Shown: one piece after another, positions 7,140-62,746 of the stretch
Numbering within the stretch: position 1 is the stretch's first letter
How the letters are laid out: each line of letters opens with the position of its first letter
Source: an uncultured Thermodesulfobacteriota bacterium
GTDB lineage: Bacteria > Desulfobacterota > JBBIRW01
DNA length: 64,000 bases
NCBI GenBank assembly: GCA_964505185.1
Contig: CAZDGM010000004.1
Span: 2,054 to 66,053 of the forward strand
Direction: 5' to 3'
Program-made: the position numbers and the translations under genes
The notes under the pieces: generated by a model
What the model saw: only the letters and a program-made list of their open reading frames with translations
What the model was told of the DNA's origin: nothing
The model's database searches: none

Positions 7140-8209
7140 ATCAAAGGAATTTCAGCTCCATTCCACAATCTGTAATCTGAACCGAATCTGGCAGAAAATC
7201 TGCCAGCAATAATAAACCCACAAAGTATACACTTATTTCCTGAAAGATTGTATCTTTTAATGGAAAACCAATCCCTTTCTATCAGTATTGAATTACACAA
7301 TGGACAGATAGTCTTTGTTTCATCATCGATATTTCCCATATAAACATAAAGAAGCCCCTTTTCCTTTCCTATTTTCTGTGCCCTCTTTAATGTTGAAAGC
7401 GGTGTTACATTCCCGCCTGATAGCCTAAACTGAGGGAAAAATCTTGTGACATGCCACGGTGTGTCCACTCCAAGCTCTTTTGAAATCCATGAAGCAATTT
7501 TACTTAACTCATCTTCTGAATCATTAAATCCCGGTATAATATTTGTTACACATTCAACATGCATTCCCCATTTAAATTTTGCAAGCTTTGTAGCCTGGAG
7601 TATGGATGCAAAGTCCCTTATCCCTCCAATTCTGTTATATGTCTCTTCGGAAAATCCCTTTATATCAACCCTGAAGCAGTCTATATATGGTCCTATCATA
7701 TCAAGGGCCTCTGGAGTTATATAGCCATTTGTCACAAGATGTGTAAGAAGACGCTGGCTCCTTGCTTCCCTTGCTGAATCAATAATGAACTCAAGCCATA
7801 CGGAAGGCTCATTGTATGTCCATGATATGCCAAGACAATGAAATCTTTTTGCATACCGGACAACTTCGGAAGGACTCATTAAAACACCTCCACTATCCGC
7901 ATGAGACATCGACCAGTTCTGGCATCCAGGGCATTTAAAATTGCATCCAAATGTCCCCATTGAGATCCATATGCTTCCCGGATAGAAGTGGAAAAGCGGC
8001 TTCTTCTCAATTGGTGATACCGCCATGGAGAGCATCCTTCCATAATTTATGGCATAAAGTGTTCCATCGACGTTCCTTCTACCCCTGCAGAATCCCTTTC
8101 CTCCTGAAGGAATGACACATCTCCTTGGACAGACACCACACTGGCAGCTACCATCTTCCCTTTTAGTGTATATAAGGCATTCGGGCGGGTAATCAGGATG
8201 GGTCCTCAA
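7136..8209 (-). CDS. AmmeMemoRadiSam-system-type radical SAM enzyme (PFL-activating-enzyme-like)
   Basis: N-terminal Cys cluster CQCGVCPRRCVIPSGGKGFCRGRR followed by IEKKPLFHFYPGS and the radical-SAM motif GCNFKCPGCQNW. This is the TIGR04337-like signature. Confidence 0.8.
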   Translation of the reverse strand: MRTHPDYPPECLIYTKREDGSCQCGVCPRRCVIPSGGKGFCRGRRNVDGTLYAINYGRMLSMAVSPIEKKPLFHFYPGSIWISMGTFGCNFKCPGCQNWSMSHADSGGVLMSPSEVVRYAKRFHCLGISWTYNEPSVWLEFIIDSAREARSQRLLTHLVTNGYITPEALDMIGPYIDCFRVDIKGFSEETYNRIGGIRDFASILQATKLAKFKWGMHVECVTNIIPGFNDSEDELSKIASWISKELGVDTPWHVTRFFPQFRLSGGNVTPLSTLKRAQKIGKEKGLLYVYMGNIDDETKTICPLCNSILIERDWFSIKRYNLSGNKCILCGFIIAGRFSARFGSDYRLWNGAEIPLI

Positions 8210-8744
8210 AAATCTCCCTCAAAATTGCTTCATATCCTGATGGAACCCTTTCCATATAGAAGTATATCTTCTTCATGTAGTAGATAGCCTCTGAATATTT
8301 CTCAAATCCTTCGGAAAGCTCCCTGAATATGAGGGACCGATCCTTCAACATCATCCTATCTATCTCGTATACATCCATATAGGAGCTCTTTCCAGAGGAT
8401 TTATAGAAATCCAGGAGGGATTTCCTTTGAACATACTCCCTGAATATACCGGTCATAAAGAGTGTATAGTCACCTATATGTTTTTTAATCCTTCTTTCAA
8501 ACTCCCTCCTGTTCCGCACCTCTTCACCCTCCATGAGTAAAAGTAGCATCTCTGTAACTGTCTCGATCCTCTCTTTGTTCAGATTCCTTATCCTGTACAG
8601 GTTATCAACCCTTGCAAAATCCGCAAGCATATCCGAGATATAATCGATAATTAATTCATCCCCGAGATTCAATGATTTAAATGCCCTGAGTGTATAGGTT
8701 TTGAAAAAGGGTTTGAGGTGATAACGGGATCGTTCCGCACTCAT
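8193..8744 (-). CDS. hypothetical protein (183 aa), translationally coupled to the radical-SAM gene downstream
   Basis: ORF overlaps the start of the 7136..8209 gene by 17 nt. It is not AMMECR1-like: no RGCIG motif. Confidence 0.45.
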   Translation of the reverse strand: MSAERSRYHLKPFFKTYTLRAFKSLNLGDELIIDYISDMLADFARVDNLYRIRNLNKERIETVTEMLLLLMEGEEVRNRREFERRIKKHIGDYTLFMTGIFREYVQRKSLLDFYKSSGKSSYMDVYEIDRMMLKDRSLIFRELSEGFEKYSEAIYYMKKIYFYMERVPSGYEAILREIFEDPS

Positions 8745-8828
8745 ATAACCCTACTTCTTGATGGAGATCGAAAATAGATTCCTCTTATAATTTACATCCG
8801 CTGAAAAAACATGACAAGGGGATGGAAA

Positions 8829-9734
8829 TTACAGAATCCGTGAGAGTTCCCCGACAAGAATCCCTTCCTTTTCCAGCTCCTCAGCACCCTCCAGCGTAAG
8901 TGCCCTTTTTACAATTTCAACCCCTTCTTTCTTATCTTCAGGAAGCATAAGGTTTATCCTCAGGTAGCAGGATGCATGACTCATAAGGAATGAATCAATG
9001 GTAAGCTCTTCAAGGAATATCAGCGTCTCCTCCATTATCTCCCTCCTCGATGCGGGGATGAACATCCCCCTTTCTGCCATCTCAGAAAGGGGTGCTCCAG
9101 GTGGGAACATCAAGTTGTGAAGTCTAACTTCATCAGGATTTATGCGATTAAGAAGATGTGCAGTGTTCATTGCATGATTCCTTGAGTGCTCCTTTCCACC
9201 GAGACCCATTATAACGGAATGTGAAATCCTGAACCCTGCATCTTTCAGTTTCATGCTTGCCCTGTATATATCCTCTGAATTTACCCCCTTCCTCATAAAG
9301 GCAAGCACTTCATCATCTCCACTTTCAAGTCCCATATAGATCTTCCCGAGACCTGCCCTCTTTAGCAACTCAAGTTCCTCGGGTTTCTTTAGCATTACAA
9401 ACCTTGCCCCACCATAGCAGCTAATCTCTTTTGCATGGGGGTATTCATTCTTTATAATTTCCAGAACATCCAAGAGATATCGTGTCTTCAGCGCAATTAC
9501 ATTTCCTGCGGCAAGGAACACCCTTTTTGCAACCGCAGGTTTTGCTGACCTCACATAATCCCTTATCTGTTGAAGGGGTATTATCGAGAATGATTCAAAC
9601 TTATAATCCCCGCAGAAAAGGCATCTATTATAGGGGCATCCCCATGCAACAGGGATAACAAAGGAATCCCTCTCAATGGGTGGTCGGCACAATGAGTGAA
9701 ATTCCTCCCCTCTATCACCTTTCCCTGTATACAT
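8829..9734 (-). CDS. radical SAM domain protein with non-canonical Cx4Cx2C cluster motif
   Basis: VAWGCPYNRCLFCGDY has Cys spacing C-x4-C-x2-C. YMGLESGDDEVL is a HemN/Elp3-like SAM-binding stretch, and the TIM-barrel length is appropriate. Confidence 0.65.
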   Translation of the reverse strand: MYTGKGDRGEEFHSLCRPPIERDSFVIPVAWGCPYNRCLFCGDYKFESFSIIPLQQIRDYVRSAKPAVAKRVFLAAGNVIALKTRYLLDVLEIIKNEYPHAKEISCYGGARFVMLKKPEELELLKRAGLGKIYMGLESGDDEVLAFMRKGVNSEDIYRASMKLKDAGFRISHSVIMGLGGKEHSRNHAMNTAHLLNRINPDEVRLHNLMFPPGAPLSEMAERGMFIPASRREIMEETLIFLEELTIDSFLMSHASCYLRINLMLPEDKKEGVEIVKRALTLEGAEELEKEGILVGELSRIL

Positions 9735-49635: not shown

Positions 49636-50799
49636 TCAATCAAGCCTCTTCTGGAATCTCACTATGCTTAAGAATATTATTACTGTGCCTAAAAGGATGA
49701 GGGCAATCGTATAAACCCATAAATGATAGAGTCCAACACCCTTCAGTATAATCCCCCTCAATATGATGAGAAAATATGTAATGGGAAGCAGATAGCCAGC
49801 CATCTGAGCAAGCCAGGGCATCGCCTCCCTCGGAAAAATAAATCCCGAAAGGAGTATACTTGGAAGGAAGATAAAAAATGAAAGCTGGAATGCCTGGGCT
49901 TGGGTCTTTGATATCATGGAAAGCCATAATCCCAATCCAAGACTTGAAAGCATGAAGAAGAATGTGAGTACATATAGAAGAAGGATTGACCCCGCAACTG
50001 AAACATCAAATATCCATGAACCAAGCAGAAGTATTATCGTAAACTGCATATAGCCGATAAATATGTATGGAAGCATCTTTCCCAGCATAAGCTCAATCTT
50101 TGTAATTGGCGTGACAATCAGCTGCTCAAGTGTTCCCTGCTCCCTCTCCTTTACTATTGCAACTGCAGTATATGTTATTGTCGTCATCATAAGGATGATC
50201 CCGCAGATTCCCGGGATCATAAAATTTGCACTCAGCTGATCAGGATTATACCATGCCCTGATTTCCACATTAACAGGAAGAAGCCTCTTTGATTCTTCCT
50301 CTGAAGGGAGTGTGCTTTTTATCCCATTTCCCCCCTCCCTTATCCTCATAATAAGAAGATCTATGGACCAGAGCTGACCTATGGCATGTGCAGCACTGAG
50401 TGCTGACGAAGAGGTCATCGGATCCGATGCATCTATGATAACCTGAACCTGTGTGCTCCTTCCCGCCTTTATATTTTTCTCAAAATCAACAGGGATAATA
50501 ATACCGACCTTTGCGCTACCACTGTCTATGAGATCCGATAGCGCCTTGAAATGGGGAGGATAAAATCTTATATCAAAATACTGTGTATTTCTAAAACTAT
50601 CAATAAGCCTTCTTGATTGTTCTGATTGACTGTAATCTATAACAGCAGTGGGAAGGTGTTTTGCCTCAGTATTGATGGCGTAGCCATAAAGGAGAAGTTG
50701 AAAGGTAGGAATTATAACCATCATAGCAAGTGTTATCCTGTCCCTTTTTACATGAATTAACTCCTTCCATACTATTGAAAATAGCCTTGTTGTTGACAT
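49636..50799 (-). CDS. ABC-2 type transporter permease
   Basis: N-terminal TM segment, a large extracytoplasmic loop, and a C-terminal 5-TM ABC-2 domain. Confidence 0.8.
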   Translation of the reverse strand: MSTTRLFSIVWKELIHVKRDRITLAMMVIIPTFQLLLYGYAINTEAKHLPTAVIDYSQSEQSRRLIDSFRNTQYFDIRFYPPHFKALSDLIDSGSAKVGIIIPVDFEKNIKAGRSTQVQVIIDASDPMTSSSALSAAHAIGQLWSIDLLIMRIREGGNGIKSTLPSEEESKRLLPVNVEIRAWYNPDQLSANFMIPGICGIILMMTTITYTAVAIVKEREQGTLEQLIVTPITKIELMLGKMLPYIFIGYMQFTIILLLGSWIFDVSVAGSILLLYVLTFFFMLSSLGLGLWLSMISKTQAQAFQLSFFIFLPSILLSGFIFPREAMPWLAQMAGYLLPITYFLIILRGIILKGVGLYHLWVYTIALILLGTVIIFLSIVRFQKRLD

Positions 50800-50802
50800 T
50801 CC

Positions 50803-51528
50803 CTACTCCTTTGAATGTAAAAGCGATATGAATATATCCTCAACTGTTATATCCCTGGACATCTTTAATTCCTCGGGCGATCCACAAACATGAATCATCC
50901 CATCATACATTATGCCAATCCTGTGACATTGCTCAGCCTCATCCATATGGTGGGTCGTAAGGAAAACTGTGGTTCCTTTATCAGATAAATCGTAAATGAT
51001 ATCCCATATCCTCCTTCTCTCCTCAGGATCCATGCCCGCTGTTGGTTCATCAAGAAAAACGAGCTCCGGTTTATGGATTATTGCACAGGCAAGGCCAAGG
51101 GATTGTCTTACACCCGAAGGCAATGTTGATGCCTTACTCTTCCTGTATCCTTTAATATCCAGGAGTTCCAAAAGATACTCAACCCTATCCATGAAACCTT
51201 CATAGCTCGAATAATACATACCCCAATAAAAATATAGATTCTCCTCAACATCCATATCCCTGTAAAATCCAAATCTCTGTGACATATACCCGCTTCTTTT
51301 CCTTATCTCTTCTGCCTCTCTTTCTATATCAAATCCTAATACAAGACCCTCCCCCGAGGTTGGTCTTAGCAGACCGCATAGCATCCTTACGGTTGTTGAT
51401 TTTCCCGCACCATTGGGACCAAGGAGGCCGAATATCTCTGCTCTTTTCACCTCGAGATCTATACCTTTTACAGCATAAAAATTTCCGAATTTCTTTGTGA
51501 TACCCTTTAGAGAGATTGCAAGATCCAT
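50803..51528 (-). CDS. ABC transporter ATP-binding protein
   Basis: Walker A GPNGAGKST, signature LPSGVRQSL, Walker B VFLDEPTAGMD. Confidence 0.9.
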   Translation of the reverse strand: MDLAISLKGITKKFGNFYAVKGIDLEVKRAEIFGLLGPNGAGKSTTVRMLCGLLRPTSGEGLVLGFDIEREAEEIRKRSGYMSQRFGFYRDMDVEENLYFYWGMYYSSYEGFMDRVEYLLELLDIKGYRKSKASTLPSGVRQSLGLACAIIHKPELVFLDEPTAGMDPEERRRIWDIIYDLSDKGTTVFLTTHHMDEAEQCHRIGIMYDGMIHVCGSPEELKMSRDITVEDIFISLLHSKE

Positions 51529-51534
51529 AATCCT

Positions 51535-52467
51535 TTATCTCTCGGATAAAGACTCTTCCTTTTTGAAGAAATTGAAAAGATCGCCAACAGAAAATTCACT
51601 ACTGGTTATTAGAAAATCATCATAACCTTCTCCTCTCACATATTCAGCTATCCTCTGACCATCATCTTTAGTTTCCACCCAGATATATATCCTATCACCG
51701 GAAAGCCTCACGCCTTTTACAAAATCAAGCGATTGAAGCTTTTGCCCGATCCTCCACGGTCTGCTGCATCTCATCGCAAAAAGTTTACCCGGCATCCTTG
51801 ATTTAAGATCAGAAAGAGATCCTGAAGCGATCAGCCTACCTCTGTGGAGAAAACCGATCCTGCTGAATCTCTCAGCCTCCTCCATATAGGATGTTGAGAT
51901 AATAAATGTTATCCCCTCCCTGTGTAGTTCGTTCAAAAAACCCCATATATCCATCCGGGAAACAGGATCAAGACCTGTTGTCGGCTCATCCAGTAGAAGC
52001 AACCTGGGTTTATGAATAACAGCGCAGGCAAGGGCAAGTTTCTGTCTCATTCCTCCTGAAAGGGAGCCTGAGTGATGGTGGCGAAAGGATTTAAGTTTTG
52101 TTATCTCAAGGAGAAAAGATATCCACTCCTCGTCTCCCTTTTCAGGAACGCCGTAGATAGATAAAAAGAATCTCAATAATTCACTAACTGTGAGATAATC
52201 ATACAGTGTTACACCCTGGGGAAGATAGCCTATATAGCGCTTTACTGACTCCCCATCCTCTATAATATTTTTCCCAAAAATTTTTACGGTTCCTTTTGTT
52301 GGTGATATTATACCCGCAATAATCCTTAAAAGCGTTGACTTCCCTGCCCCATCAGGACCTATTAAACCAAAAACCTCATCCTTCCTTATGTCTAAATTTA
52401 TTCCACACAGTGCTTCATACTCTCCAAAGCTCTTTGTTAGATTCGTAATTTCAACGATATTTAACAT
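51535..52467 (-). CDS. ABC transporter ATP-binding protein (second NBD, with a C-terminal extension)
   Basis: Walker A GPDGAGKST, signature LSGGMRQKL, Walker B LLLDEPTTGLD. Confidence 0.9.
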   Translation of the reverse strand: MLNIVEITNLTKSFGEYEALCGINLDIRKDEVFGLIGPDGAGKSTLLRIIAGIISPTKGTVKIFGKNIIEDGESVKRYIGYLPQGVTLYDYLTVSELLRFFLSIYGVPEKGDEEWISFLLEITKLKSFRHHHSGSLSGGMRQKLALACAVIHKPRLLLLDEPTTGLDPVSRMDIWGFLNELHREGITFIISTSYMEEAERFSRIGFLHRGRLIASGSLSDLKSRMPGKLFAMRCSRPWRIGQKLQSLDFVKGVRLSGDRIYIWVETKDDGQRIAEYVRGEGYDDFLITSSEFSVGDLFNFFKKEESLSER

Positions 52468-52484
52468 ATCCTGATATGAGATCT

Positions 52485-53474
52485 TTAGGGTTTGTATATG
52501 ATCACATCAGCAGGCATGCCTGGCTTAAGGAGCATCTCCTTATTTTCCACCAGGATCTTTACCGAAAAAACAAGATGAACCCTTTCCTTCCGTGTTTGAA
52601 TAAACTTGGGGGTAAATTCAGCCTTACTTCCAATTTCACCAACAACCCCATGAAAGATCCTTCCAGGGAATGAATCAACCGTGATGTCAACCTTAGCCCC
52701 GATCATCACCCTTCCAATCTCATCCTCAGGGATAAACACCCTTACCCATGCATTTTCAATATCACCAATTGTAGCTACTGGATAAAGGGGTGAGACCACC
52801 TCCCCTTCATCCATATTTTTAAGAAGAACAACACCCGATACAGGGCTTTTAAGTACCGCCTCATCGAGCTGCTTCTTCGCATATTTCAACGCTGCCTCAG
52901 CCTCTCTTACCCTTTCCCTTGCCTCTTCTATCTGGTATTTCCTTGAGCCCTCTTCAAGCAGTTTTAACTTCTCCTTTGCTTCCCTGACACGGGACTCAGC
53001 CTGATCAAGAAGTGTCTTTGCCTCATCCCTCTTCCTCTCAGGAATAACACCCTCCTCAAAAAGTGCCTTTGCCCTTTCAAATTCGTTCCTTGCAAACACA
53101 AAATCAGATTCTGCCCTCCGCAACTCTGCCTTTGCCATTTCGATTTCCTGGATCCTAAAGCCTTCAAGAAGATCCTTAAGGTATGCTTTTGCCCTCCTCA
53201 GGGCCGCCTCTGCCTCCTCCACCCTTGCCTTCAGCTCCTCATCATCAAGGGTGGCGAGGATCTGCCCTTTTTTAACCCTATCACCTTCCCTGAAGTTTAT
53301 CTTCTTTATCCTCCCCGAAATCTTAAATGCAACTTCAACCTGCTCTACCTCCACAGTCCCTGTTGCCCTTAATGTGCTACTGTTCTCTTTAACCCATGCT
53401 CTGTATGTCCTTATACCCAGGAGGAAAAAAACAGCAATGATCACAATGCCCGCATATATCCACTTTCGTCTCAA
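52485..53474 (-). CDS. HlyD-family membrane fusion / periplasmic adaptor protein
   Basis: N-terminal TM anchor, a long coiled coil, and beta-barrel/lipoyl domains. Confidence 0.85.
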   Translation of the reverse strand: MRRKWIYAGIVIIAVFFLLGIRTYRAWVKENSSTLRATGTVEVEQVEVAFKISGRIKKINFREGDRVKKGQILATLDDEELKARVEEAEAALRRAKAYLKDLLEGFRIQEIEMAKAELRRAESDFVFARNEFERAKALFEEGVIPERKRDEAKTLLDQAESRVREAKEKLKLLEEGSRKYQIEEARERVREAEAALKYAKKQLDEAVLKSPVSGVVLLKNMDEGEVVSPLYPVATIGDIENAWVRVFIPEDEIGRVMIGAKVDITVDSFPGRIFHGVVGEIGSKAEFTPKFIQTRKERVHLVFSVKILVENKEMLLKPGMPADVIIYKP

Positions 53475-53485
53475 AACCCCTCCCT

Positions 53486-54631
53486 TTAAACCTTAAATCT
53501 GAGAAGTGCACCTATTTGAATGGGTTTATCGTTGTAATAAAAATCATAATGGATCTCTCTTAGTTCACTCCCTGTGCTTATAGATAGATTTACTGCATCA
53601 TCGACAATATTCTCCCTCTCCTCCATCTCCTTTCTGCAGTAGGGGCATGCCTCTTGCCTCCACCAGATATAACCGCACTCCTTGCATATGGCACCCTTTT
53701 CCCTGTAGCCTTCACGCACGATGAGCATGCGAACAGCCCCCCTCTGTATAGCGAAGAGTGTATTATCAAGTCCAAAACAACCAAGTCCCTTTGATGAAAC
53801 CTCTTTAAAAATTTCATCCATAAGCTTTTTCTCTTCCGCCTTTCTTATCTCCTCCTCAACCGATCTTATGACCTCCTGCACCTGAGATACTGGTGTGTCG
53901 ATAACCATATCCAGTCTCGCTGCAATCCTACTCTTCAGGTTATTTGGAAGATGGAGCTCAAATTTGCTGATGAGTTTCTGATTCCCCCCAATGATCATAT
54001 ATTCAATATCCCGAATTTTGAAGAATTCAGAGACTGCATCACTAACCCTTTTAAGGTATCTCTGCAGGTGATCCTCTATATGCCTCTCAATCCGTCTTTC
54101 CGCAAGTCCATACCACCCCGCCATCTTTACCTTCGATGGAACATCGCTTAGCATGTGCGATTCTTCACTTAAAATACCCATGTAGTAGTGGAATATACGG
54201 GATGCATCCCTGTCAAGGATTACCATTCCAAATCTATGATACCCATCCATCAGAAACAGAAGTGGTTTAATAAAAGGCCTCGAATCAACAACCATCATAT
54301 TTCTTACAGGCACTGGAAGGTTAAATAATTCCCAGAGTCCAGCATTGCGAGATGAGAAAAAAACGAGACCTTTTGTTCCTTTTCTCTCAAATTTCTGTAT
54401 TACAAAATTAAGGGTATCCTGGAGCTCTTTTTCAATCATTAATCTCTTTTCCCTCTCAACCTCAAGCCTTTCCATCTCCTCCTTCTTTTCCTTTATCAAT
54501 CCTTTAAGCACAATTTCATACTCCTTTTTTGGATACAACTTCCCATCGACATTCAGATAAAGACTCACCACAGGGGAATCCTTTGTATCCATTGAGATAA
54601 GCTCTCTTACCTTCTGTAAAACATTAACCAT
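53486..54631 (-). CDS. bacterial eRF1/Pelota-like (baeRF-type) protein with a C-terminal Zn-ribbon insert
   Basis: N-terminus PVVSLYLNVDG is the signature start of bacterial aeRF1-like families. The central region has MIIGGNQK. A CKECGYIWWRQEACPYCRK Zn ribbon is inserted in the C-domain. It ends 11 nt before the HlyD start. Confidence 0.5.
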   Translation of the reverse strand: MVNVLQKVRELISMDTKDSPVVSLYLNVDGKLYPKKEYEIVLKGLIKEKKEEMERLEVEREKRLMIEKELQDTLNFVIQKFERKGTKGLVFFSSRNAGLWELFNLPVPVRNMMVVDSRPFIKPLLFLMDGYHRFGMVILDRDASRIFHYYMGILSEESHMLSDVPSKVKMAGWYGLAERRIERHIEDHLQRYLKRVSDAVSEFFKIRDIEYMIIGGNQKLISKFELHLPNNLKSRIAARLDMVIDTPVSQVQEVIRSVEEEIRKAEEKKLMDEIFKEVSSKGLGCFGLDNTLFAIQRGAVRMLIVREGYREKGAICKECGYIWWRQEACPYCRKEMEERENIVDDAVNLSISTGSELREIHYDFYYNDKPIQIGALLRFKV

Positions 54632-54640
54632 AAAAACCTC

Positions 54641-55369
54641 CTATTTAGCTTTACCGTGATATATTGAAAACATCTCTTTCATGCGGATGGCATCTTCAAA
54701 CATCGAGATATTATTAAACATGAAATATCCTTCCTTAAAATCCTCTGTCATCTCAATGAGCTCCCTCAGATCACTATCAGTGTATTTATATCTGTATCCA
54801 TCCCTTCCATGCAATCGCAGATAGAATATTGAGAAACCTCGAGGCATCGTTCTGAAAGGATCCATGCATGGGACTAAATCAAGTTCTCTGCATATACGGT
54901 AGATCTGCTCATTTTCCCAGCATCCCCTCGGTTCCCATACGCATATTATCCCCTTCCTCTCGATCTTTTTGAAAAATCCTTTTAAATTTCTTATGCTCTC
55001 ATCTGATGGTATAAATGAGGAAGGGGTTTGAAAAACAACAATCCGTGATAAAAGGACTTCAGCAATTTTTCTTACAGCCTCCCACGCTTCAAAAACCTCA
55101 TCAGTATTCTGAAAATTTCCATATCTCCCCTTCTTACCCTCATCAATCCTCCTCTTTAATCTCCTGTATGTTGGGCTTGTAGGGGAATGGGTAATGAGCT
55201 GCCAGGCCTTTATAGTAAATTCAAAACCCTCAGGAACATCTTTTCTCCATTTCTCAATAGTTGAAAGCCGAGGTGGATCATAGAAGATCTGCTGAACTTC
55301 AACAACATCAAAATACCTCATATACCTTTCCCTTGATACGGAAAAGCCACAACATCCAACCTTTATCAT
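54641..55369 (-). CDS. DUF72 (UPF0759) TIM-barrel family protein
   Basis: N-terminus IKVGCCGFSV...YFDVVEVQQIFYDPP matches the DUF72 ...vGtsGW...fY.p signature. Confidence 0.75.
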   Translation of the reverse strand: MIKVGCCGFSVSRERYMRYFDVVEVQQIFYDPPRLSTIEKWRKDVPEGFEFTIKAWQLITHSPTSPTYRRLKRRIDEGKKGRYGNFQNTDEVFEAWEAVRKIAEVLLSRIVVFQTPSSFIPSDESIRNLKGFFKKIERKGIICVWEPRGCWENEQIYRICRELDLVPCMDPFRTMPRGFSIFYLRLHGRDGYRYKYTDSDLRELIEMTEDFKEGYFMFNNISMFEDAIRMKEMFSIYHGKAK

Positions 55370-55815
55370 AAATCTTTATTCGTGGAAATGTCTTTTATAA
55401 TTGCAGATGCCTTAAGAACGATATCCCTTTCACTATTATAATTCATAACCTTGACAGCCTCCTCAATCGGAAACCACCTTACCTCCTCAACCTCAAAGTC
55501 GTGATCTTCAACACTTCCAGAAAGATATTCAAGGAGATAGAAATGGACAGTTTTATTGATTTTGCTTTTGCTCTGCCTGTCATAAAACCAGTAGTTTATC
55601 TCCCCTATCTTATCCACAATCCTTCCATCAAGTCCTGTTTCCTCCTTTACCTCCCTTATGGCTGTCTTTTCAAAATCCTCTGATTCCTCAACGATCCCCT
55701 TTGGTAAGCACCAGATCCTTCCATCACCCCTACGGATAAGGGCAATAAATACCCTCTCTCCTTCTCTCCTGTATATGACACCTCCGGATGAGACCTGCTT
55801 TATAATTCTCCCCAT
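55366..55815 (-). CDS. Nudix hydrolase
   Basis: Nudix box GIVEESEDFEKTAIREVKEETGL; ATGA overlap with the DUF72 gene. Confidence 0.85.
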   Translation of the reverse strand: MGRIIKQVSSGGVIYRREGERVFIALIRRGDGRIWCLPKGIVEESEDFEKTAIREVKEETGLDGRIVDKIGEINYWFYDRQSKSKINKTVHFYLLEYLSGSVEDHDFEVEEVRWFPIEEAVKVMNYNSERDIVLKASAIIKDISTNKDL

Positions 55816-56885
55816 AGCGAACTCCTGCCAAGCTCTTTTCCAGAACTACATATCTTTAATGAACCCAGTTGAAGAAATTTTACCCTTGCTGGAACCTTAA
55901 GTGGTGTAAGAATATGAAATACACCTCTTCTTATATCAAATTTTATCAATATTCCAAGGGCAATTGTATTTAAATGCCTGTCACTCAGACCTACAAGGAG
56001 ATTTTCGAAATCCTCAATATCGTAAATCTCCAATTCATTAACAGAAAAGACATCCTTTATTCTAAAAAGATTTTCCCTGCTATAACCTCCCCTCGTGATT
56101 ATGGACATCCTGTTTATCTTTCTTTCCGCATAGAGCGCAGATGTTTCGAGTTCCCTCGAAAGGAAGGAAATGTCACTGCTTGTAACCCTCTTCCCAATCC
56201 CAATTGTTGCACCTATTATGGATATACCCTCGATGGGAAACTCCAATTCTGATGCCATGGAAAAATATTCTCCAAACATCCTCTCCCTGTATGCCTTTCT
56301 TATCTCCCTTTCCCTCTGTTTCACTGCTCCAACTGGCTTTAATTCATAGATCTTTAAATGATCCATCTTCCTGAAAGGATCCAAAATAGGCTCAAGCTCT
56401 CCATCATCAATCACAACAATGTTTTCTGGTTTAATTATATCTATTTTGTAAAGCTTAAGCGTCCTTGCTGCCCTTCCATGGATAAGACCTGATGTGTCAA
56501 CAATAGTGTATTCACTGCCAAGATAAGCTGACCTCTCCATAAGTGCCTTCACACCAGCAATAATAGGAACAAAGAATCCAACAGGTGAGGTGGAACCTAT
56601 GAATCTTGTTCCCACACATCTGATTTCGCATATACCTTCCTGCTTCTTCCTTGCAAGTCCTAATGCTATTGTTGTGGGAAGACCGATTGACTGTTGACCG
56701 ACATCTGTATCGAGCAAACTTACACGCTCACCTCGCATTGTAAGTTCATCAACGATAAACCTCGAGAGTGTGCTCTTTCCTGAATCGGTTTTGCCGAGAA
56801 TTACCGTTGGGCCCCTTCTCTTTCTTATTTCAGAAACAAGATCAACCCATTCGGGCGGGATCAGGATTTTATCTCTCCTTTCCAT
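55800..56885 (-). CDS. Clp1/Grc3-family polynucleotide 5'-hydroxyl kinase
   Basis: P-loop ILGKTDSGKSTL and the family-specific clasp motif LLDTDVGQQSIG (D-x-D-x-GQ). Three-domain length of 361 aa, as in archaeal Clp1. Confidence 0.8.
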   Translation of the reverse strand: MERRDKILIPPEWVDLVSEIRKRRGPTVILGKTDSGKSTLSRFIVDELTMRGERVSLLDTDVGQQSIGLPTTIALGLARKKQEGICEIRCVGTRFIGSTSPVGFFVPIIAGVKALMERSAYLGSEYTIVDTSGLIHGRAARTLKLYKIDIIKPENIVVIDDGELEPILDPFRKMDHLKIYELKPVGAVKQREREIRKAYRERMFGEYFSMASELEFPIEGISIIGATIGIGKRVTSSDISFLSRELETSALYAERKINRMSIITRGGYSRENLFRIKDVFSVNELEIYDIEDFENLLVGLSDRHLNTIALGILIKFDIRRGVFHILTPLKVPARVKFLQLGSLKICSSGKELGRSSLWGEL

Positions 56886-56903
56886 TTTAACTCACCTGAA
56901 ATT

Positions 56904-58001
56904 TCAATAGGCATCGGAAAGCAGGTGGACATTTCCGATTCTGACCCTTTTTAATCCCTCTTCATGGGCAACTTCCCTACATTTTTCCGCATGGGATCTT
57001 GATGTCCTCGGCAGATCTGTAAGATAAAACTGGGGATAGAATCCAAGAAGGGAAAAGGGGATTTCAGGGTCAAGGGAAGAGATAAAGCGTGCTATCAATC
57101 TTACCTCCTTTTCATCCACATATCCCGGAACAAGCAGTGTGCTTGCAATAAGCAGAGGAGGCTCCCGTCTCCTTTTAATAAATGATGCTGCGAAACGGAA
57201 ATTCTCCAGGGTCTGATCATTATATGTATTGCACAGTGCAAGATGGAGATTTTTATCCCATGCCTTTAAGTCAAACTTCACACAACCTCCGCTATCAAGT
57301 GCAATATTCATAATCTCTTCGAGAAAATCCCTCCTCATGGAACCATTCGTCTCCCAGCAGATCCTCAATATCCTGCCCCTCTTTCTCTTCAATGCAATCC
57401 TTGATGCTTTTATAGAATGGATAATCTGTGATGAAGGATCCCCACCAAAATAGCACACGCAGCTTGTTCTCTCATCGATAGCATCAATCAGCTCCTCGGC
57501 AGATATACCTCTTCCTTTTATGTCCATCCTTCTGAAATGCCAGTTCTGACAGAAAAGGCAGTTGAATGTGCATGCGTGATAGAAAACAGCGAGATTTTTA
57601 TAACCTATCTCAGGCCCTTTTTTGTAACAGAACTCGGGATAACCCGAGCCTGTTCCCCCTGGACATACCCAGTCAGCAACACAGTTTGTCGGGAGCGGAT
57701 CATAATAGTAGCTAAGATAGCCTTCTCCTCCTCCCCTGAGATAACCATCTTCAAACCTCCTTATGCCGCAAAAACCTCTTTCACCTTCTGGGATAATACA
57801 TCTGTTGCCGCAGAAATCACATTCCTTACCACCACCCTTTGGGATCTCCTCCCTTAAACGAAATCTCCTTCTGCTTTCTCTATGCAGTTCGAAAATATCT
57901 TCTTTAATATCGAAAGAACCTTCCCTTATGCAATCCGCACAATATCCAAGAATCGATGAAATGGTCAATGAACGATTATTACAACTTTTACACCTGCCCA
58001 C
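56904..58001 (-). CDS. PFL-activating-enzyme-like radical SAM protein with N-terminal Zn ribbon (paralogue of the AmmeMemoRadiSam-type enzyme at 7136..8209)
   Basis: CKSCNN...CADC ribbon; CDFCGNRCIIPEGERGFCGIRR (same Cys cluster as CQCGVCPRRCVIPSGGKGFCRGRR at 7136..8209); radical-SAM motif ACTFNCLFCQNW. Confidence 0.75.
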   Translation of the reverse strand: MGRCKSCNNRSLTISSILGYCADCIREGSFDIKEDIFELHRESRRRFRLREEIPKGGGKECDFCGNRCIIPEGERGFCGIRRFEDGYLRGGGEGYLSYYYDPLPTNCVADWVCPGGTGSGYPEFCYKKGPEIGYKNLAVFYHACTFNCLFCQNWHFRRMDIKGRGISAEELIDAIDERTSCVCYFGGDPSSQIIHSIKASRIALKRKRGRILRICWETNGSMRRDFLEEIMNIALDSGGCVKFDLKAWDKNLHLALCNTYNDQTLENFRFAASFIKRRREPPLLIASTLLVPGYVDEKEVRLIARFISSLDPEIPFSLLGFYPQFYLTDLPRTSRSHAEKCREVAHEEGLKRVRIGNVHLLSDAY

Positions 58002-58009
58002 TTATCTCC

Positions 58010-59278
58010 CTAAAAAAGCCTCATCTGTCTGTCATCACTTATCGGGATATCTTTCCCATGCTCGCCCTCATCATCCCATGCAATGGATACCTTACCGTAA
58101 ATACCATCATACCCCGGAATTATCTTTACAAAACCCTGCCTCACCTTCATAACGCCGGAATATATTTTTTGTGGAAGGAGCTTTGAAAGCTCTTCAGGGG
58201 TAAGGTTCAGCAGTATATTAAATTCCGATCCGCATTGGGAGACTATTTTTCTGTACTCCTTCTCAACCCTTTCTGTTCCCACACCAACCCCCAATGCATC
58301 TGCAATGATCTCCTCAAGCGGAATCAGATGTTTTGCAGGAATTGCACCTTCTGGAACATACCCCTCAGGTCTGTCAGCAAGCTCCTCAACCCTGTGCATA
58401 ACACCTATGGTTAATGGAGATTTACATACAGGACACCTGTTATTATACTTTTTACTCTCAACAGGGGAGAAGGAAACTCCACAATTCCTATGACCATCGA
58501 AATGGTATTTACCTTCCTGAGGAAAGAACTCGATTGTAAAGAGAAACCTATCCCTTGATTTTGTTTTTAAGGATTCAACAATATCCCTGTATGTAAGAGG
58601 GCAATTGAAAACATTTGCCTCCCTTCCAATTCTCGATGGTGAATGGGCATCTGAATTAGAGATCAGGGTAATATTATCAAGTGCTGATAGACGCCAGTTC
58701 ATCTGTGGATCTGAGGAAAGACCTGTTTCAATGACCCTTATCAGATCTGCCTGATCCTCAAATGCCTCCTCTATGGAATCAAAACCGGAGAATGAACCGA
58801 AGAGGGAAAACCAGGGTGTCCAGACATGTGCAGGGATGATCATTGCATCAGGAGAAATATCGCAAACCATCTTTACCAGATCCTTTACAGGAAATCCGAA
58901 CACCGGTCTTCCATCCGATCCGATCTTACCCAGTCGTGAAAGCAATGAATTAAGTTTTCCAGCAGCTTCAAAGGATGGAAGGAAGATGATGCAGTGAATC
59001 TTTCTGAGCTTTCCACCACTTGAAAAAATGTTGCTAACTTCTCCTGTCAGCATGAATTTTACCGATTGATCACCCTTCTTTAATGAGAATAGCCCATTTC
59101 CCTCAGGCTTGAGCTTTCCCATCAATTCTGCGAAGTATGTTGGATGGGTAAAATCACCTGTTCCAAGAAGGTTTATCCCCTTCAGTTTTGCCCATTTTGC
59201 CATATTCTCTACATCCATATCCCTGCTCGTTGCCCTGCTATACTTCGAATGAACATGAAAATCTGCAATAATCCTCAT
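58010..59278 (-). CDS. endonuclease Q-like protein (PHP-fold nuclease, TIGR00375-type) with C-terminal Zn finger
   Basis: N-terminal IADFHVHSKYSRA...LLGTGDFTHP; internal GLSSD, SNSDAHSP, GKYHFDGHRNC; Zn finger CPVCKSPLT. These are the motifs I associate with archaeal EndoQ. Confidence 0.7.
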   Translation of the reverse strand: MRIIADFHVHSKYSRATSRDMDVENMAKWAKLKGINLLGTGDFTHPTYFAELMGKLKPEGNGLFSLKKGDQSVKFMLTGEVSNIFSSGGKLRKIHCIIFLPSFEAAGKLNSLLSRLGKIGSDGRPVFGFPVKDLVKMVCDISPDAMIIPAHVWTPWFSLFGSFSGFDSIEEAFEDQADLIRVIETGLSSDPQMNWRLSALDNITLISNSDAHSPSRIGREANVFNCPLTYRDIVESLKTKSRDRFLFTIEFFPQEGKYHFDGHRNCGVSFSPVESKKYNNRCPVCKSPLTIGVMHRVEELADRPEGYVPEGAIPAKHLIPLEEIIADALGVGVGTERVEKEYRKIVSQCGSEFNILLNLTPEELSKLLPQKIYSGVMKVRQGFVKIIPGYDGIYGKVSIAWDDEGEHGKDIPISDDRQMRLF

Positions 59279-59317
59279 GAAAACCTCCCTTTGAATATTG
59301 CACCTTCCGCTTTCTGG

Positions 59318-59572
59318 CTATTCAATAACCCTGTAGACGAGATCAGAAGGTCTTACCCTCTCACTGACCTTTATTCCCACAAGATCCCCCTCTGATGCCG
59401 TTTCAACATTCTGGTGTTCAATCTGCATGGACTCAACCTTCTGCACAAAGTCAGTGGTGCTCCCCTGAAAATGAAGGGAGTCCCCAACCTTTATAGAACC
59501 CTTTGTGATCTTTATTGCTGCAACCCCTATCTTTGCAAAATATTTAACAACCTCTCCAACCTTTTCTTCCAT
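59318..59572 (-). CDS. small EF-Tu domain-2-like beta-barrel protein (translation elongation factor-like protein family)
   Basis: 84 aa with a KVGD..H..G....F.Q.V.S.Q......E.A..GD.VGIKV pattern like EF-Tu domain II. Confidence 0.5.
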   Translation of the reverse strand: MEEKVGEVVKYFAKIGVAAIKITKGSIKVGDSLHFQGSTTDFVQKVESMQIEHQNVETASEGDLVGIKVSERVRPSDLVYRVIE

Positions 59573-59593
59573 AAAAACCTCCTGATTCAGGTT

Positions 59594-61315
59594 TTAACCT
59601 CTCCCCTTAGAGGTCATCTTAATAAGTTCATTAAGGGGAAGGGTATTCAATACATCATCCTTTGTCAGCCAGCCTCTCCTCGCTACAGCGATACCAAATT
59701 CCATCAGTTCAAGGTGATTCATGATATGTGCATCCGTATTTATGCAAAGCTTTACACCCAACTCCTTTGCCCTCCTTGAGAGGATATCATTTAAATCCAT
59801 CCTCTGGGGGTAAGCATTTATCTCAAGGGAAATATTCCTCCTCTTCGCCTCTTTCATAATAAGGTCAAAGTCCAGCTCATAAGCCTCCCTTTCTCCAATA
59901 AGCCTTCCTGTGGGATGGGCTATGATATTCACATAGTGGTTAGACATGGCATTCAGGATCCTCTTTGTAAGAACCTCTTTTCCTGCCTTGAACCCATAAT
60001 GGATCGATGCAATAACTATATCAAGCTTCTTTAAAACCTCATCAGGTAGATCAAGTGATCCATCTCCAAGGATGTCAACCTCAATCCCCTTAAGTATCCT
60101 TATCTTTGATTTCCTGTTGAGCCTTTCAATCTCCTCTATCTGCTCCATAACTTCCTCTGGTCCCATCCCCCTTGCAATCCCAAGTGATTTTGTGTGATCT
60201 GCAATCGCTATATATTCGTAACCCTTTTTTTCTGCATATCTGGCAATCTCCTCTATTTCATGAGCACCATCACTCCACTTAGAGTGTATGTGGAGATCCC
60301 CTTTTATATCAGAGAGTTCAATAAGCTGGGGAAGTCTTCCTTCGGCTGCTGCCTCAATCTCGCCCTGATCTTCCCTTAATTCAGGTGGAATCCATTTGAG
60401 TCCGAGTGCTCTGTAAACCTCCTCCTCCTCCTTCCCCGCAATCTTTTTGCCTGTTTTTTCATCGAAAACGCCATATTCACTTATCTTCAGGCCCAGCCTA
60501 TCTGCTATCTGTCTTAGATGTATATTATGATTTTTTGATCCCGTGAAATATTGAAGCGCTGCACCGAAACTTTCAGGCTCAACAACCCTCAGATCAACCT
60601 GAAGTCCATCATGGGTAAGCACGCTGGACTTTGTTGAACCCTTTGCAAGCACATCAGAAACATAAGGAAGAGAAACAAAGTAATCCATGATCTTTTTGGG
60701 ATCATGGGAAATTATGAGTATGTCTACATCCTTTATGGTTTCCTTCATCCTCCTTAGACTTCCCGCTATATTCAACCTCTTTACCTCTTTGAGCGAAAGT
60801 AGTGCCTTTTCAAATTCCCTGGCAATGGGAAGAACCCTTCCGAGGAGCATCCTTTCCCTTCCCTTTTTATAAAGCTCTATACCCTTTCTGATATTCTCCT
60901 CGGTTTTTTCCCTTATCCCTGGAAGTTTACACAGTTTGTGACTTTTTGCAGCCTCTTCCAGTTCTTCTATCGTTTTTATTCCCAGGGATTCATATATGAG
61001 CTTTGCAGTCTTTGGTCCAAGACTCGGTATGGAGAGCATCTGCACAAGTCCTCTGGGGATCTCCTTTTTCAGCCTCTCATAATCCTCAAATGTCCCTCTT
61101 TCTATGATCTCAACAATCTTCTGTGCGAGGTCTTTGCCTATGCCAGGGATCTTTGTAAGCTCGCCCCTTTTTGAAATATCCTCTATATTCTCCGTTAGAT
61201 TCTCTATATTCTGGGCTGCTTTCCTGTAAGCCCTGATCCTGAAAGGGTTCTCATCTTTGATTTCGAGGAGATCAGCAACGTCGTTGAATATCCTTGCAAT
61301 CTCCATGTTTTTCAT
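59594..61315 (-). CDS. polX: family X DNA polymerase (PolX) with C-terminal PHP 3'-5' exonuclease/phosphoesterase domain
   Basis: 8-kDa domain (FRIRAYRKAAQNI); HhH motifs (IPGIGKDLAQKI, LPGIREKT); Pol-beta nucleotidyltransferase (GSLRRMKETIKDVDILI); PHP domain (DLHIHSKWSDGAHEIEEIARYAEKKGYEYIAIADH). Confidence 0.9.
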   Translation of the reverse strand: MKNMEIARIFNDVADLLEIKDENPFRIRAYRKAAQNIENLTENIEDISKRGELTKIPGIGKDLAQKIVEIIERGTFEDYERLKKEIPRGLVQMLSIPSLGPKTAKLIYESLGIKTIEELEEAAKSHKLCKLPGIREKTEENIRKGIELYKKGRERMLLGRVLPIAREFEKALLSLKEVKRLNIAGSLRRMKETIKDVDILIISHDPKKIMDYFVSLPYVSDVLAKGSTKSSVLTHDGLQVDLRVVEPESFGAALQYFTGSKNHNIHLRQIADRLGLKISEYGVFDEKTGKKIAGKEEEEVYRALGLKWIPPELREDQGEIEAAAEGRLPQLIELSDIKGDLHIHSKWSDGAHEIEEIARYAEKKGYEYIAIADHTKSLGIARGMGPEEVMEQIEEIERLNRKSKIRILKGIEVDILGDGSLDLPDEVLKKLDIVIASIHYGFKAGKEVLTKRILNAMSNHYVNIIAHPTGRLIGEREAYELDFDLIMKEAKRRNISLEINAYPQRMDLNDILSRRAKELGVKLCINTDAHIMNHLELMEFGIAVARRGWLTKDDVLNTLPLNELIKMTSKGRG

Positions 61316-61368: not shown

Positions 61369-62589
61369 CTAACATACGGGAAACCTCCCATTTAAAAGCA
61401 TCTCGCAGAAGGATCCTATACGGGAGAGCTCCTCATCGATTATATCCTCACAGCTTCTGGATATCTTTTTAAAACTCGCCCGATCCTTCTTCAATATCTG
61501 TGCCGATGCGATCTTTGGTCGATCAATGGGAGAGCCGATCTGACTGCATAACCACACATATACCTCCCTTATTCCATCCACCTCTTCATATATCCTGTTT
61601 GCAATCTGGTGGGCAAGAATATTGTATATCTTTCCCACATGACTTACAGGATTTTTCCCGGCAGCTGCCTCTGCTCCTGTTGGCCTGTTCAGTGCAATTA
61701 TCCCGTTTACCCTGTTTCCTCTTCCAACCTGACCTGAATCTGCATCTTCAGCTGAGGTCCCAAGGACACTCAGATATACACCCTCAACCCCCCTCCTTTT
61801 CCTGTCAAGGGTATTGAAGTATAGATTGGTATTCCTGAAGTAGCCTTTATTTAAAAGGGTAAAGTTTTTTATCTCCCTCATTACAACCCTTTTCCTCTCG
61901 AAATAATATGCCTCATTCTCGATAAATCTATCTATAAAAGGCATAGCAATGGTAAGGTGAATATCCCTCCCCTCCCTGAATCCCATAACCTTCACATCCT
62001 CACCTGTTTCAGGAAACCTGTTTTTGAACTCTGAAGAATTAAGGAATCTTTCAATCTCCAGAACAAGCTTCTCCGTCGGTGTAAGCGGTGCATAACCAAC
62101 AGCAGCTGATGTATCATTGGATCCATACAATCCCTTCCTATCCTTTTTGAATAAAGATGTAAGTTCCGCTGATCCCGGTTTCAACTCAACCTGATAACGG
62201 ACATGCTCTTCAGGATCAACAAACCTTAAATTCTTTCTTATCCAGTCCTTTGCAGTTTCAATTGTGATCTCCTCCACCGCTATCACTTTTCCATCCACCC
62301 TGATCGTTGCTCTATCACCTATTATAATCTTCATAGGCTCTATAACCCTTCCACCACCAAATCTTCTCTCCACACCACCTGCAACAAGAAGCCCCTTGTC
62401 TATGTTAAAATGGCACATACCCCCTGTGAGTCGTAAATACTCGCGTGAAAGTGCCCTTGAGACCTCCTCCATTATGGAATCACATATGAAATCAGGATGA
62501 CCAAGGCCCTTGCGCTCAACTATCTCAACCTTCTGTTCTTCAATCGGGATTGACTTCAGTTCTTCCACAATTATCTTCCTTACACCCAT
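61369..62589 (-). CDS. archaeal-type S-adenosylmethionine synthetase (MAT, PF01941-type)
   Basis: ERKGLGHPDFICDSI, NDTSAAVGYAPLTPTEKLVLEIERFLNS, GEDVKVMG, VYLSVLGTSAEDADSGQVGRGNRVNG, GKNPVSHVGKIYNILAHQIA are near-identical to M. jannaschii MAT motifs. Start placed at MGVRKIIVEE, preceded by GGAGAGGGGAAGG; the ORF-track start at 62604 sits inside that RBS. Confidence 0.9.
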   Translation of the reverse strand: MGVRKIIVEELKSIPIEEQKVEIVERKGLGHPDFICDSIMEEVSRALSREYLRLTGGMCHFNIDKGLLVAGGVERRFGGGRVIEPMKIIIGDRATIRVDGKVIAVEEITIETAKDWIRKNLRFVDPEEHVRYQVELKPGSAELTSLFKKDRKGLYGSNDTSAAVGYAPLTPTEKLVLEIERFLNSSEFKNRFPETGEDVKVMGFREGRDIHLTIAMPFIDRFIENEAYYFERKRVVMREIKNFTLLNKGYFRNTNLYFNTLDRKRRGVEGVYLSVLGTSAEDADSGQVGRGNRVNGIIALNRPTGAEAAAGKNPVSHVGKIYNILAHQIANRIYEEVDGIREVYVWLCSQIGSPIDRPKIASAQILKKDRASFKKISRSCEDIIDEELSRIGSFCEMLLNGRFPVC

Positions 62590-62746
62590 CCTTCCCCTCT
62601 CCATTTTCTTTTTTTCTCTTCTGGATTGCCTGCTGGGCTATACAGTCCCCATCCGTTGGATCACAACCCTTCTTTCTCAATTCACACCATCCATCCATGC
62701 TATACTTGCAATACATCTATTCCTTTTTACCACAAAAAGGGTTCAA

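Follow-up and report, generated by a model that had tools for sequence, protein, structure and literature searches.

In a 64,000-nucleotide stretch of DNA from an uncultured Thermodesulfobacteriota bacterium (GenBank assembly GCA_964505185.1, contig CAZDGM010000004.1; hereafter, the window), we analyzed an eRF1-like gene located at positions 53486..54631 of the minus strand. The product of this gene belongs, as an unremarkable member, to a large family of eRF1-like bacterial proteins that has already been catalogued and in part characterised; it is probably, with a probability that we put at roughly 0.6, a non-hydrolytic, Balon-type ribosome hibernation factor of baeRF_family10 that acts at the A site. 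A preliminary description of the window, made from the sequence alone, held that no protein of this kind is functionally characterised; this claim is out of date because work on both Balon and the baeRF-1 clade has been published. The baeRF-1 clade was defined by Burroughs and Aravind (2019; PMC6514570), who also noted its link to HPF genes, and Msmeg1130 and other Balons have been characterised as A-site hibernation factors by cryo-electron microscopy (cryo-EM) and biochemistry (Helena-Bueno et al. 2024; PMC10901736). According to the latter study, A-site binding by Balon and its homologues from mycobacteria does not depend on mRNA; these proteins act jointly with EF-Tu(GDP), lack the NIKS and GGQ motifs, and inhibit translation. 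Balon-type factors are present in about 20% of representative bacteria. The window gene adds one member from an uncultured lineage to the Balon/baeRF-1 family and is thus chiefly of value for annotating such proteins correctly.

The window protein is a member of this family by both profile and sequence searches. In Pfam, residues 119-253 match PF18854 (baeRF_family10) with a score of 87.5 bits against a gathering cutoff of 27.1 (E = 1.4e-24), the eRF1_3 model is matched at 31.7 bits (cutoff 25.8), and PF18854 was detected in all 77 homologues of the window protein that were scanned. The top match among the sequences in the Protein Data Bank (PDB) is Msmeg1130, annotated as "Ribosome hibernation factor Balon", which is aligned over the full length both with the single sequence (E = 2.3e-13) and with a 47-sequence profile (E = 1.6e-28); the further profile matches are, in order, the archaeal aRF1 4af1 (3.7e-19), eRF1s, Rv2629 (3.3e-12) and the Balon of P. 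urativorans (3.8e-9). These results bear out the bacterial aeRF1-type (baeRF) identity proposed in the preliminary description. Msmeg1130 itself, its sequence rebuilt from the printed alignment and then scanned, scores 124.7 bits for PF18854, so that the window protein is in one curated family with a protein that has been seen in the ribosomal A site by cryo-EM. The best NCBIfam models are three "ribosome hibernation factor" families along with aRF1/eRF1, all of them well under the equivalog cutoffs, and the model of the classical aeRF1 release factor, TIGR03676, yields 85.4 bits against a cutoff of 234.7. The family is large: at E <= 1e-3 it comprises 7,688 representative clusters, of which 1,428 still match at E <= 1e-30. 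Relatives are labelled at source as 'peptide chain release factor' or 'hypothetical'. For the counts of alignment columns given below, we aligned 218 full-length relatives drawn from two protein searches.

The gene is complete, its coordinates including the stop codon, and encodes 381 amino acids from an ATG start; a ribosome-binding site, AGGAGG (54637..54642, minus strand), can be read from the sequence 5 nt 5' of the ATG, where it overlaps the stop codon of the preceding DUF72 gene. The placement of the open reading frame in the preliminary description was thus correct, as was the spacing: the gene begins 9 nt past the DUF72 stop codon, and 11 nt separate its end from the HlyD gene, whose start codon is TTG and which is preceded by a GGGAGG of its own. 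The dN/dS values relative to the orthologues with 93% and 76% identity are 0.125 and 0.108, respectively, and the gene accordingly is under purifying selection. Given these values and the PF18854 match, the reading frame is not due to chance.

The three-domain fold shared by eRF1 and Pelota, the absence of which was named in the preliminary description as the result that would overturn its assignment, is apparent in the profile alignments with PDB sequences and in a confident AlphaFold2 model built with the family alignment as the input (pLDDT 91.3, pTM 0.81). The N-terminal domain (residues 1 to ~130; 54242..54631, minus strand) is of the eRF1 N-domain type and contains, at residues 21-30, the VVSLYLNVDG strand, which the preliminary description had taken as a signature of bacterial aeRF1-like families. 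The counterpart of this strand by homology is strand one of the aRF1 N domain, and it is near-invariant among the relatives (S23 in 200/218, Y25 in 204/218 and L26 in 197/218). The middle domain (residues ~131-262; 53846..54241, minus strand) is RNase-H-like and is the one that matches PF18854, and the C-terminal domain (residues 263-381; 53489..53845, minus strand) is of the eRF1_3/Pelota type and ends with a conserved LLRF.

The features that bear most directly on the function of the window protein are in the decoding and catalytic elements of the eRF1 scaffold. HMMER alignments to eRF1 and aRF1 place the equivalent of the GGQ loop, VPSKVKMAGWYGL, at residues 164-176 (54104..54142, minus strand); the eRF1 segment 'LPKKHGRGGQSALRFARLR' is paired with 'VPSKVKMAGWYGLAERRIER' of the window protein, so that a loop of the eRF1 length carries AGW in place of GGQ. 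The pLDDT of this loop is 63-67, that is, it is modelled as flexible. Among the 218 relatives, the residue at the tip of the loop (position 173) is aromatic in 126 (W in 96, F in 24 and Y in 6) and deleted in 72, with essentially no Gln, whereas the second glycine (G172) is mostly retained. No NIKS or NIKL string is present anywhere in the 381-residue sequence, and the profile alignment places the NIKS of aRF1 opposite a segment that is not conserved and that separates helices 35-56 and 60-80. Of the two kinds of loop that the preliminary description had proposed to look for, then, the eRF1-length loop is there, and the GGQ and NIKS motifs are both missing. Given the loss of NIKS, the AGW triplet and the prevalence of aromatic residues over Gln at the loop tip, a non-hydrolytic A-site blocker appears most likely. 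The loop is followed by an Arg/His-rich helix, ERRIERHIEDH, in which R180, R183 and H184 are retained among the relatives; this conservation fits the basic residues that Burroughs and Aravind (PMC6514570) tied to the binding of large-subunit rRNA. In some homologues, GGQ strings occur elsewhere in the sequence (e.g. 'IIGGQ' in the strand that follows the helix); these are outside the catalytic loop and were discarded. In two homologues (P0019 and P0021; alignment A1, columns ~190-225), the GGQ-equivalent loop is enlarged by an insertion of some 45 residues, which duplicates the 'YGLAERRIERR' loop-helix segment.

The same loop is the place to weigh the proposal, made by Burroughs and Aravind for family 10, that these proteins are alternative release or rescue factors that hydrolyse peptidyl-tRNA on stalled ribosomes. 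This family was singled out as the one that retains the catalytic Gln (PMC6514570), the window protein preserves the loop length of eRF1 and a Gly-Gly-like pair that is conserved, as are the arginines that come after it, and Msmeg1130 has AGQ at this position. In the clade of the window protein, however, Gln is replaced by W, F or Y or is deleted, the first glycine of the loop is Ala in the window protein, and even the AGQ-bearing Msmeg1130, itself a family 10 member, turned out to be a hibernation factor that does not release peptides (PMC10901736). A hydrolytic role of the window protein thus seems unlikely. The conserved Gln of the loop is a described trait of family 10 and not a criterion of the Pfam model PF18854; judging from the alignment, the large zinc-ribbon clade of PF18854 departs from this description, the reported position of the Gln being aromatic or deleted. 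This departure, in a clade that keeps the ancestral ribbon, may be of some minor note to specialists. The replacement of the first glycine by Ala in the loop of the window protein corresponds to the eRF1 G183A substitution, which is used as a catalytically dead mutant.

The second conspicuous element is a four-cysteine zinc ribbon inserted in the C-terminal domain (residues 313-339; 53615..53695, minus strand; pLDDT 85-91). The CxxC...CxxC pattern noticed in the preliminary description corresponds to C316-x2-C319 and C329-x2-C332, and all four cysteines are present in 197 of the 218 relatives; G313, C316 and C329 are invariant in the family alignment A1. The ribbon aligns with the zinc ribbon of the archaeal aRF1 4af1 and with an insert of similar length in Msmeg1130 that lacks cysteines. 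By this alignment, the ribbon of the window protein is the ancestral aRF1 insert that has been retained. In many baeRF-1 families, the zinc ribbon of the classical aeRF-1 is reported to have been swapped for a two-strand insert at the same site (PMC6514570). Balon binds EF-Tu(GDP) through a beta-hairpin inserted in its C domain (PMC10901736). Standing where Msmeg1130 has its Cys-less insert, the ribbon may be an element that faces EF-Tu.

The proposed mechanism follows from the likeness to Balon. During growth arrest or stress, the eRF1-shaped protein, a mimic of tRNA, would take up the A site of 70S ribosomes, with the N domain at the decoding centre and the loop of the middle domain at the peptidyl-transferase centre. 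As neither a reader of stop codons nor a releaser of peptides, the protein would silence the ribosome and at the same time protect it; conceivably, the conserved aromatic tip of the loop stacks on a base of 23S rRNA. Direct observations are the fold, the family, the loss of NIKS and GGQ, the fact that the Arg/His-rich helix and the zinc ribbon have both been kept, and purifying selection. Binding to the A site, independence of mRNA and cooperation with EF-Tu(GDP) are what homology to Msmeg1130, Rv2629 and the P. urativorans Balon would predict for the window protein.

Among the known proteins of this kind, the window protein is closest to the Balon homologue that Mycolicibacterium smegmatis encodes, Msmeg1130 (PDB 8v9j and 8v9l; Helena-Bueno et al. 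2024), which comes from another phylum and another gene context, and differs from it in possessing the four-Cys ribbon and AGW as opposed to a Cys-less insert of similar length and AGQ. The N domains of the two proteins are collinear, without large indels, and a profile of the N domain only matched Msmeg1130 alone in the PDB. Rv2629 (PDB 8v9k) and the P. urativorans Balon (PDB 8rd8, 8rdv, 8rdw) are more distant in sequence than Msmeg1130. With archaeal aRF1 (PDB 4af1) and eRF1, the window protein shares all three domains, a loop as long as the GGQ loop and, downstream of it, the Arg-rich helix, and in the archaeal aRF1 the zinc ribbon is inserted at the same point; unlike these release factors, which have NIKS and GGQ, it lacks NIKS, has AGW for GGQ and belongs to a bacterial host. 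Such a host would presumably have RF1 and RF2 of its own. The computationally defined family 10 of baeRF-1 (PMC6514570), to which the window protein belongs and for which both the zinc ribbon and its degenerate two-strand form were noted, was described as having a conserved Gln, whereas the clade of the window protein is devoid of it.

Several observations weigh against the hibernation factor assignment. The identity to the characterised Balons is only 16-20%, and the scores for the NCBIfam hibernation-factor equivalogs, the families of MSMEG_1130, AOC03_06830 and Rv2629, are 92.7, 69.4 and 39.2 bits against cutoffs of 480, 330 and 320, respectively, so that by its sequence the window protein is classed as a relative of these factors and not as an equivalog. 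The lasso loop of the P. urativorans Balon differs from the eRF1-length loop of the window protein, which belongs to a clade with a conserved GG[W/F/Y]; neither the HP motif nor the lasso loop nor the bL27 trap of the P. urativorans protein was identified in the window protein in sequence alignments. In Balon, the HP motif or insertion belongs to the N domain, where it contacts A1492 and A1913, and the middle domain carries both lasso loop and bL27 trap. The 'FIKPL' of the window protein pairs with 'FIHPL' of Msmeg1130 and is a mere candidate for the HP motif. No HPF/RaiA gene or classic stress gene (Hsp20 and the like) adjoins the baeRF gene in the window; a stress-operon context with RaiA/HPF and Hsp20 is typical of Balon genes without being a defining feature (PMC10901736). 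Finally, no experimental study of the clade that combines the zinc ribbon with the aromatic loop was found in the searched literature, which is also where the residual interest of the window protein lies.

A variant of the hibernation scheme would set this clade apart mechanistically from plain Balon. Under this scenario, the zinc-ribbon proteins with a GG[W/F/Y] loop (the 1,428 clusters at the stricter threshold, with the four cysteines conserved as described above) would be delivered via the ribbon in an aRF1-like fashion, the aromatic residue would cap the peptidyl-tRNA in the peptidyl-transferase centre instead of releasing it and, in the lineage of the window, the activity would perhaps be coordinated with that of the upstream end-processing genes; we consider this scenario to be rather improbable. 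Similarly doubtful is a non-catalytic rescue function analogous to that of Pelota/Dom34, whereby the protein would recognize stalled ribosomes or an empty A site and promote the splitting or recycling of the subunits instead of keeping ribosomes stored for long periods. The hallmark of Pelota/Dom34, an Sm-like beta-barrel in the N-terminal domain, is not seen in the window protein: its N domain is of the eRF1 type and aligns with the N domains of aRF1 and Msmeg1130 and with the eRF1 N domain 2mq9, the matches to Pelota being confined to the middle and C-terminal domains. In addition, the match to Balon is much stronger, and there is no gene for an ABCE1-like or Hbs1-like partner nearby in the window.

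The identities of the neighbouring genes given in the preliminary description were confirmed by Pfam searches (DUF72, 1.7e-32; NUDIX, 8.7e-24; CLP1_P, 2.9e-34; HlyD_D23, 1.3e-26), and the DUF72 and Nudix genes, described there as translationally coupled, overlap by 4 nt; the Clp1 and Nudix genes overlap by 16 nt. All these genes are on the minus strand. Downstream of the baeRF gene (49636-53474), the exporter consists of the HlyD-like adaptor, two ABC ATPases (ABC_tran) and one ABC-2 permease; directly after it come CcsA and ResB, two genes of cytochrome c biogenesis. The layout of the exporter resembles the YbhGFSR type. On the other side, beyond the DUF72 and Nudix genes, are genes for a Clp1-type P-loop kinase (55800-56885), an AmmeMemoRadiSam-like radical SAM protein (56904-58001), a PHP protein of the MJ0043/TIGR00375 type (58010-59278), a standalone beta-barrel of 84 amino acids similar to EF-Tu domain 2 (59318-59572; PF03144, 33.1 bits), PolX with a PHP domain (59594-61315) and, in a genome that is labelled deltaproteobacterial, an archaeal-type S-adenosylmethionine (SAM) synthetase (61369-62604; PF01941, 556 bits). 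The genes from 55800 to 61315 form a series that has to do with the ends of nucleic acids; several of them are archaeal in flavour, and the series is conserved only in relatives with 76-93% identity. The EF-Tu-domain-2-like protein, encoded 5 kb upstream of the baeRF gene between PolX and the PHP protein, was considered as a Balon/EF-Tu partner and rejected because it co-occurs with the baeRF gene in close relatives only and because Balon is reported to contact EF-Tu at domain III (PMC10901736).

From this neighbourhood, the preliminary description had derived a multi-gene stress or conflict system in which the baeRF protein would act, together with the Clp1 kinase, Nudix and DUF72 proteins and the HlyD/ABC exporter, on damaged RNA or stalled ribosomes. 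The genes indeed are tightly packed and co-directional, with start/stop overlaps upstream, and the arrangement is retained in the relatives with 76% and 93% identity, the nearest of which, at 93%, is a metagenome-assembled genome labelled Deltaproteobacteria; furthermore, RtcB and the drug exporter EmrB have been reported as occasional neighbours of Balon genes (PMC10901736). The tight spacing, however, is a property of the genome and no sign of a system, given that short gaps prevail throughout the window (the median gap between genes on the same strand is 9 nt, in line with the gaps of 9 and 11 nt on either side of the baeRF gene, and 31 of the 49 gaps are 20 nt or shorter). The baeRF gene lies within a run of 27 consecutive minus-strand genes, mostly housekeeping ones, that includes those for enolase, an enzyme of the CCA-adding/poly(A) polymerase family, HU, the archaeal-type SAM synthetase and the cytochrome c assembly proteins; the run of 15 tightly spaced genes likewise includes those for the SAM synthetase, PolX and the assembly of cytochrome c. 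Predicted sigma-70 promoters and intrinsic terminators over the 47-63 kb region were as frequent as in shuffled sequence (39 vs 33 +/- 5 and 13 vs 12 +/- 3, respectively) and are therefore uninformative on operon boundaries. We also rejected a defence-system interpretation, with no PADLOC model matching the baeRF protein and only weak, generic matches for the Nudix (PDC-S07, 1.3e-8) and Clp1 (mad8, 2e-6) proteins.

A scan of one genome per species with a profile from the 18 closest sequences yielded 54 loci, to which metagenome look-ups added five, and the twelve proteins encoded next to the baeRF gene in the window were compared with all family loci using tblastn. Only in three loci (L001, L002 and L006), whose baeRF proteins are 76-93% identical to that of the window, does the baeRF gene occur together with the Clp1, Nudix, DUF72, HlyD and ABC genes; none of the 53 other family 10 loci has consistent neighbours of these kinds within 10 kb, and three loci with Clp1 homologues, found in contexts unrelated to that of the window, contain no Nudix, DUF72 or baeRF gene. 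A search of the literature for DUF72, Clp1, Nudix, MJ0043 or YecE together retrieved only papers on eukaryotic polyadenylation. The window genes for Clp1, Nudix, DUF72 and the HlyD/ABC exporter are thus lineage-specific chromosomal neighbours and not partners of the baeRF gene, and a system that couples RNA repair to export, the source of much of the appeal of the original finding, is very unlikely. In Brocadia, the Clp1 homologue is paired, with a start/stop overlap, with RecJ (L060, 5268-8077).

Other loci of the family show associations of different kinds. In three orthologous loci, a gene for a chimera of about 330 amino acids, with an N-terminal S30AE/HPF domain and a C-terminus resembling sigma-70 region 4 and PhyR-sigma-like proteins, is located immediately upstream of the baeRF gene (L003, 6987-7979; L004, 6657-7670; L008, ~8134-9144); according to a preprint from 2025, chimeric hpf genes are frequent neighbours of Balon. 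In L004, a zf-HC2 anti-sigma-like gene lies between the genes for the chimera and the baeRF protein, and Hsp20 and GroES/EL genes are nearby; in L018, L028 and L048, a related sigma-like gene without S30AE comes after the baeRF gene. In nine loci, mostly labelled Atribacterota or Atribacteria (L025, L030, L031, L034, L038, L039, L041, L043 and L044), the baeRF gene is preceded by a gene of the small multidrug-export family (PF06695) and an IF-2B/MtnA-like gene, neighbours that are most likely shared as a result of synteny inside one lineage. The exporter genes in these loci echo the drug-exporter neighbours that have been reported for some Balon genes.
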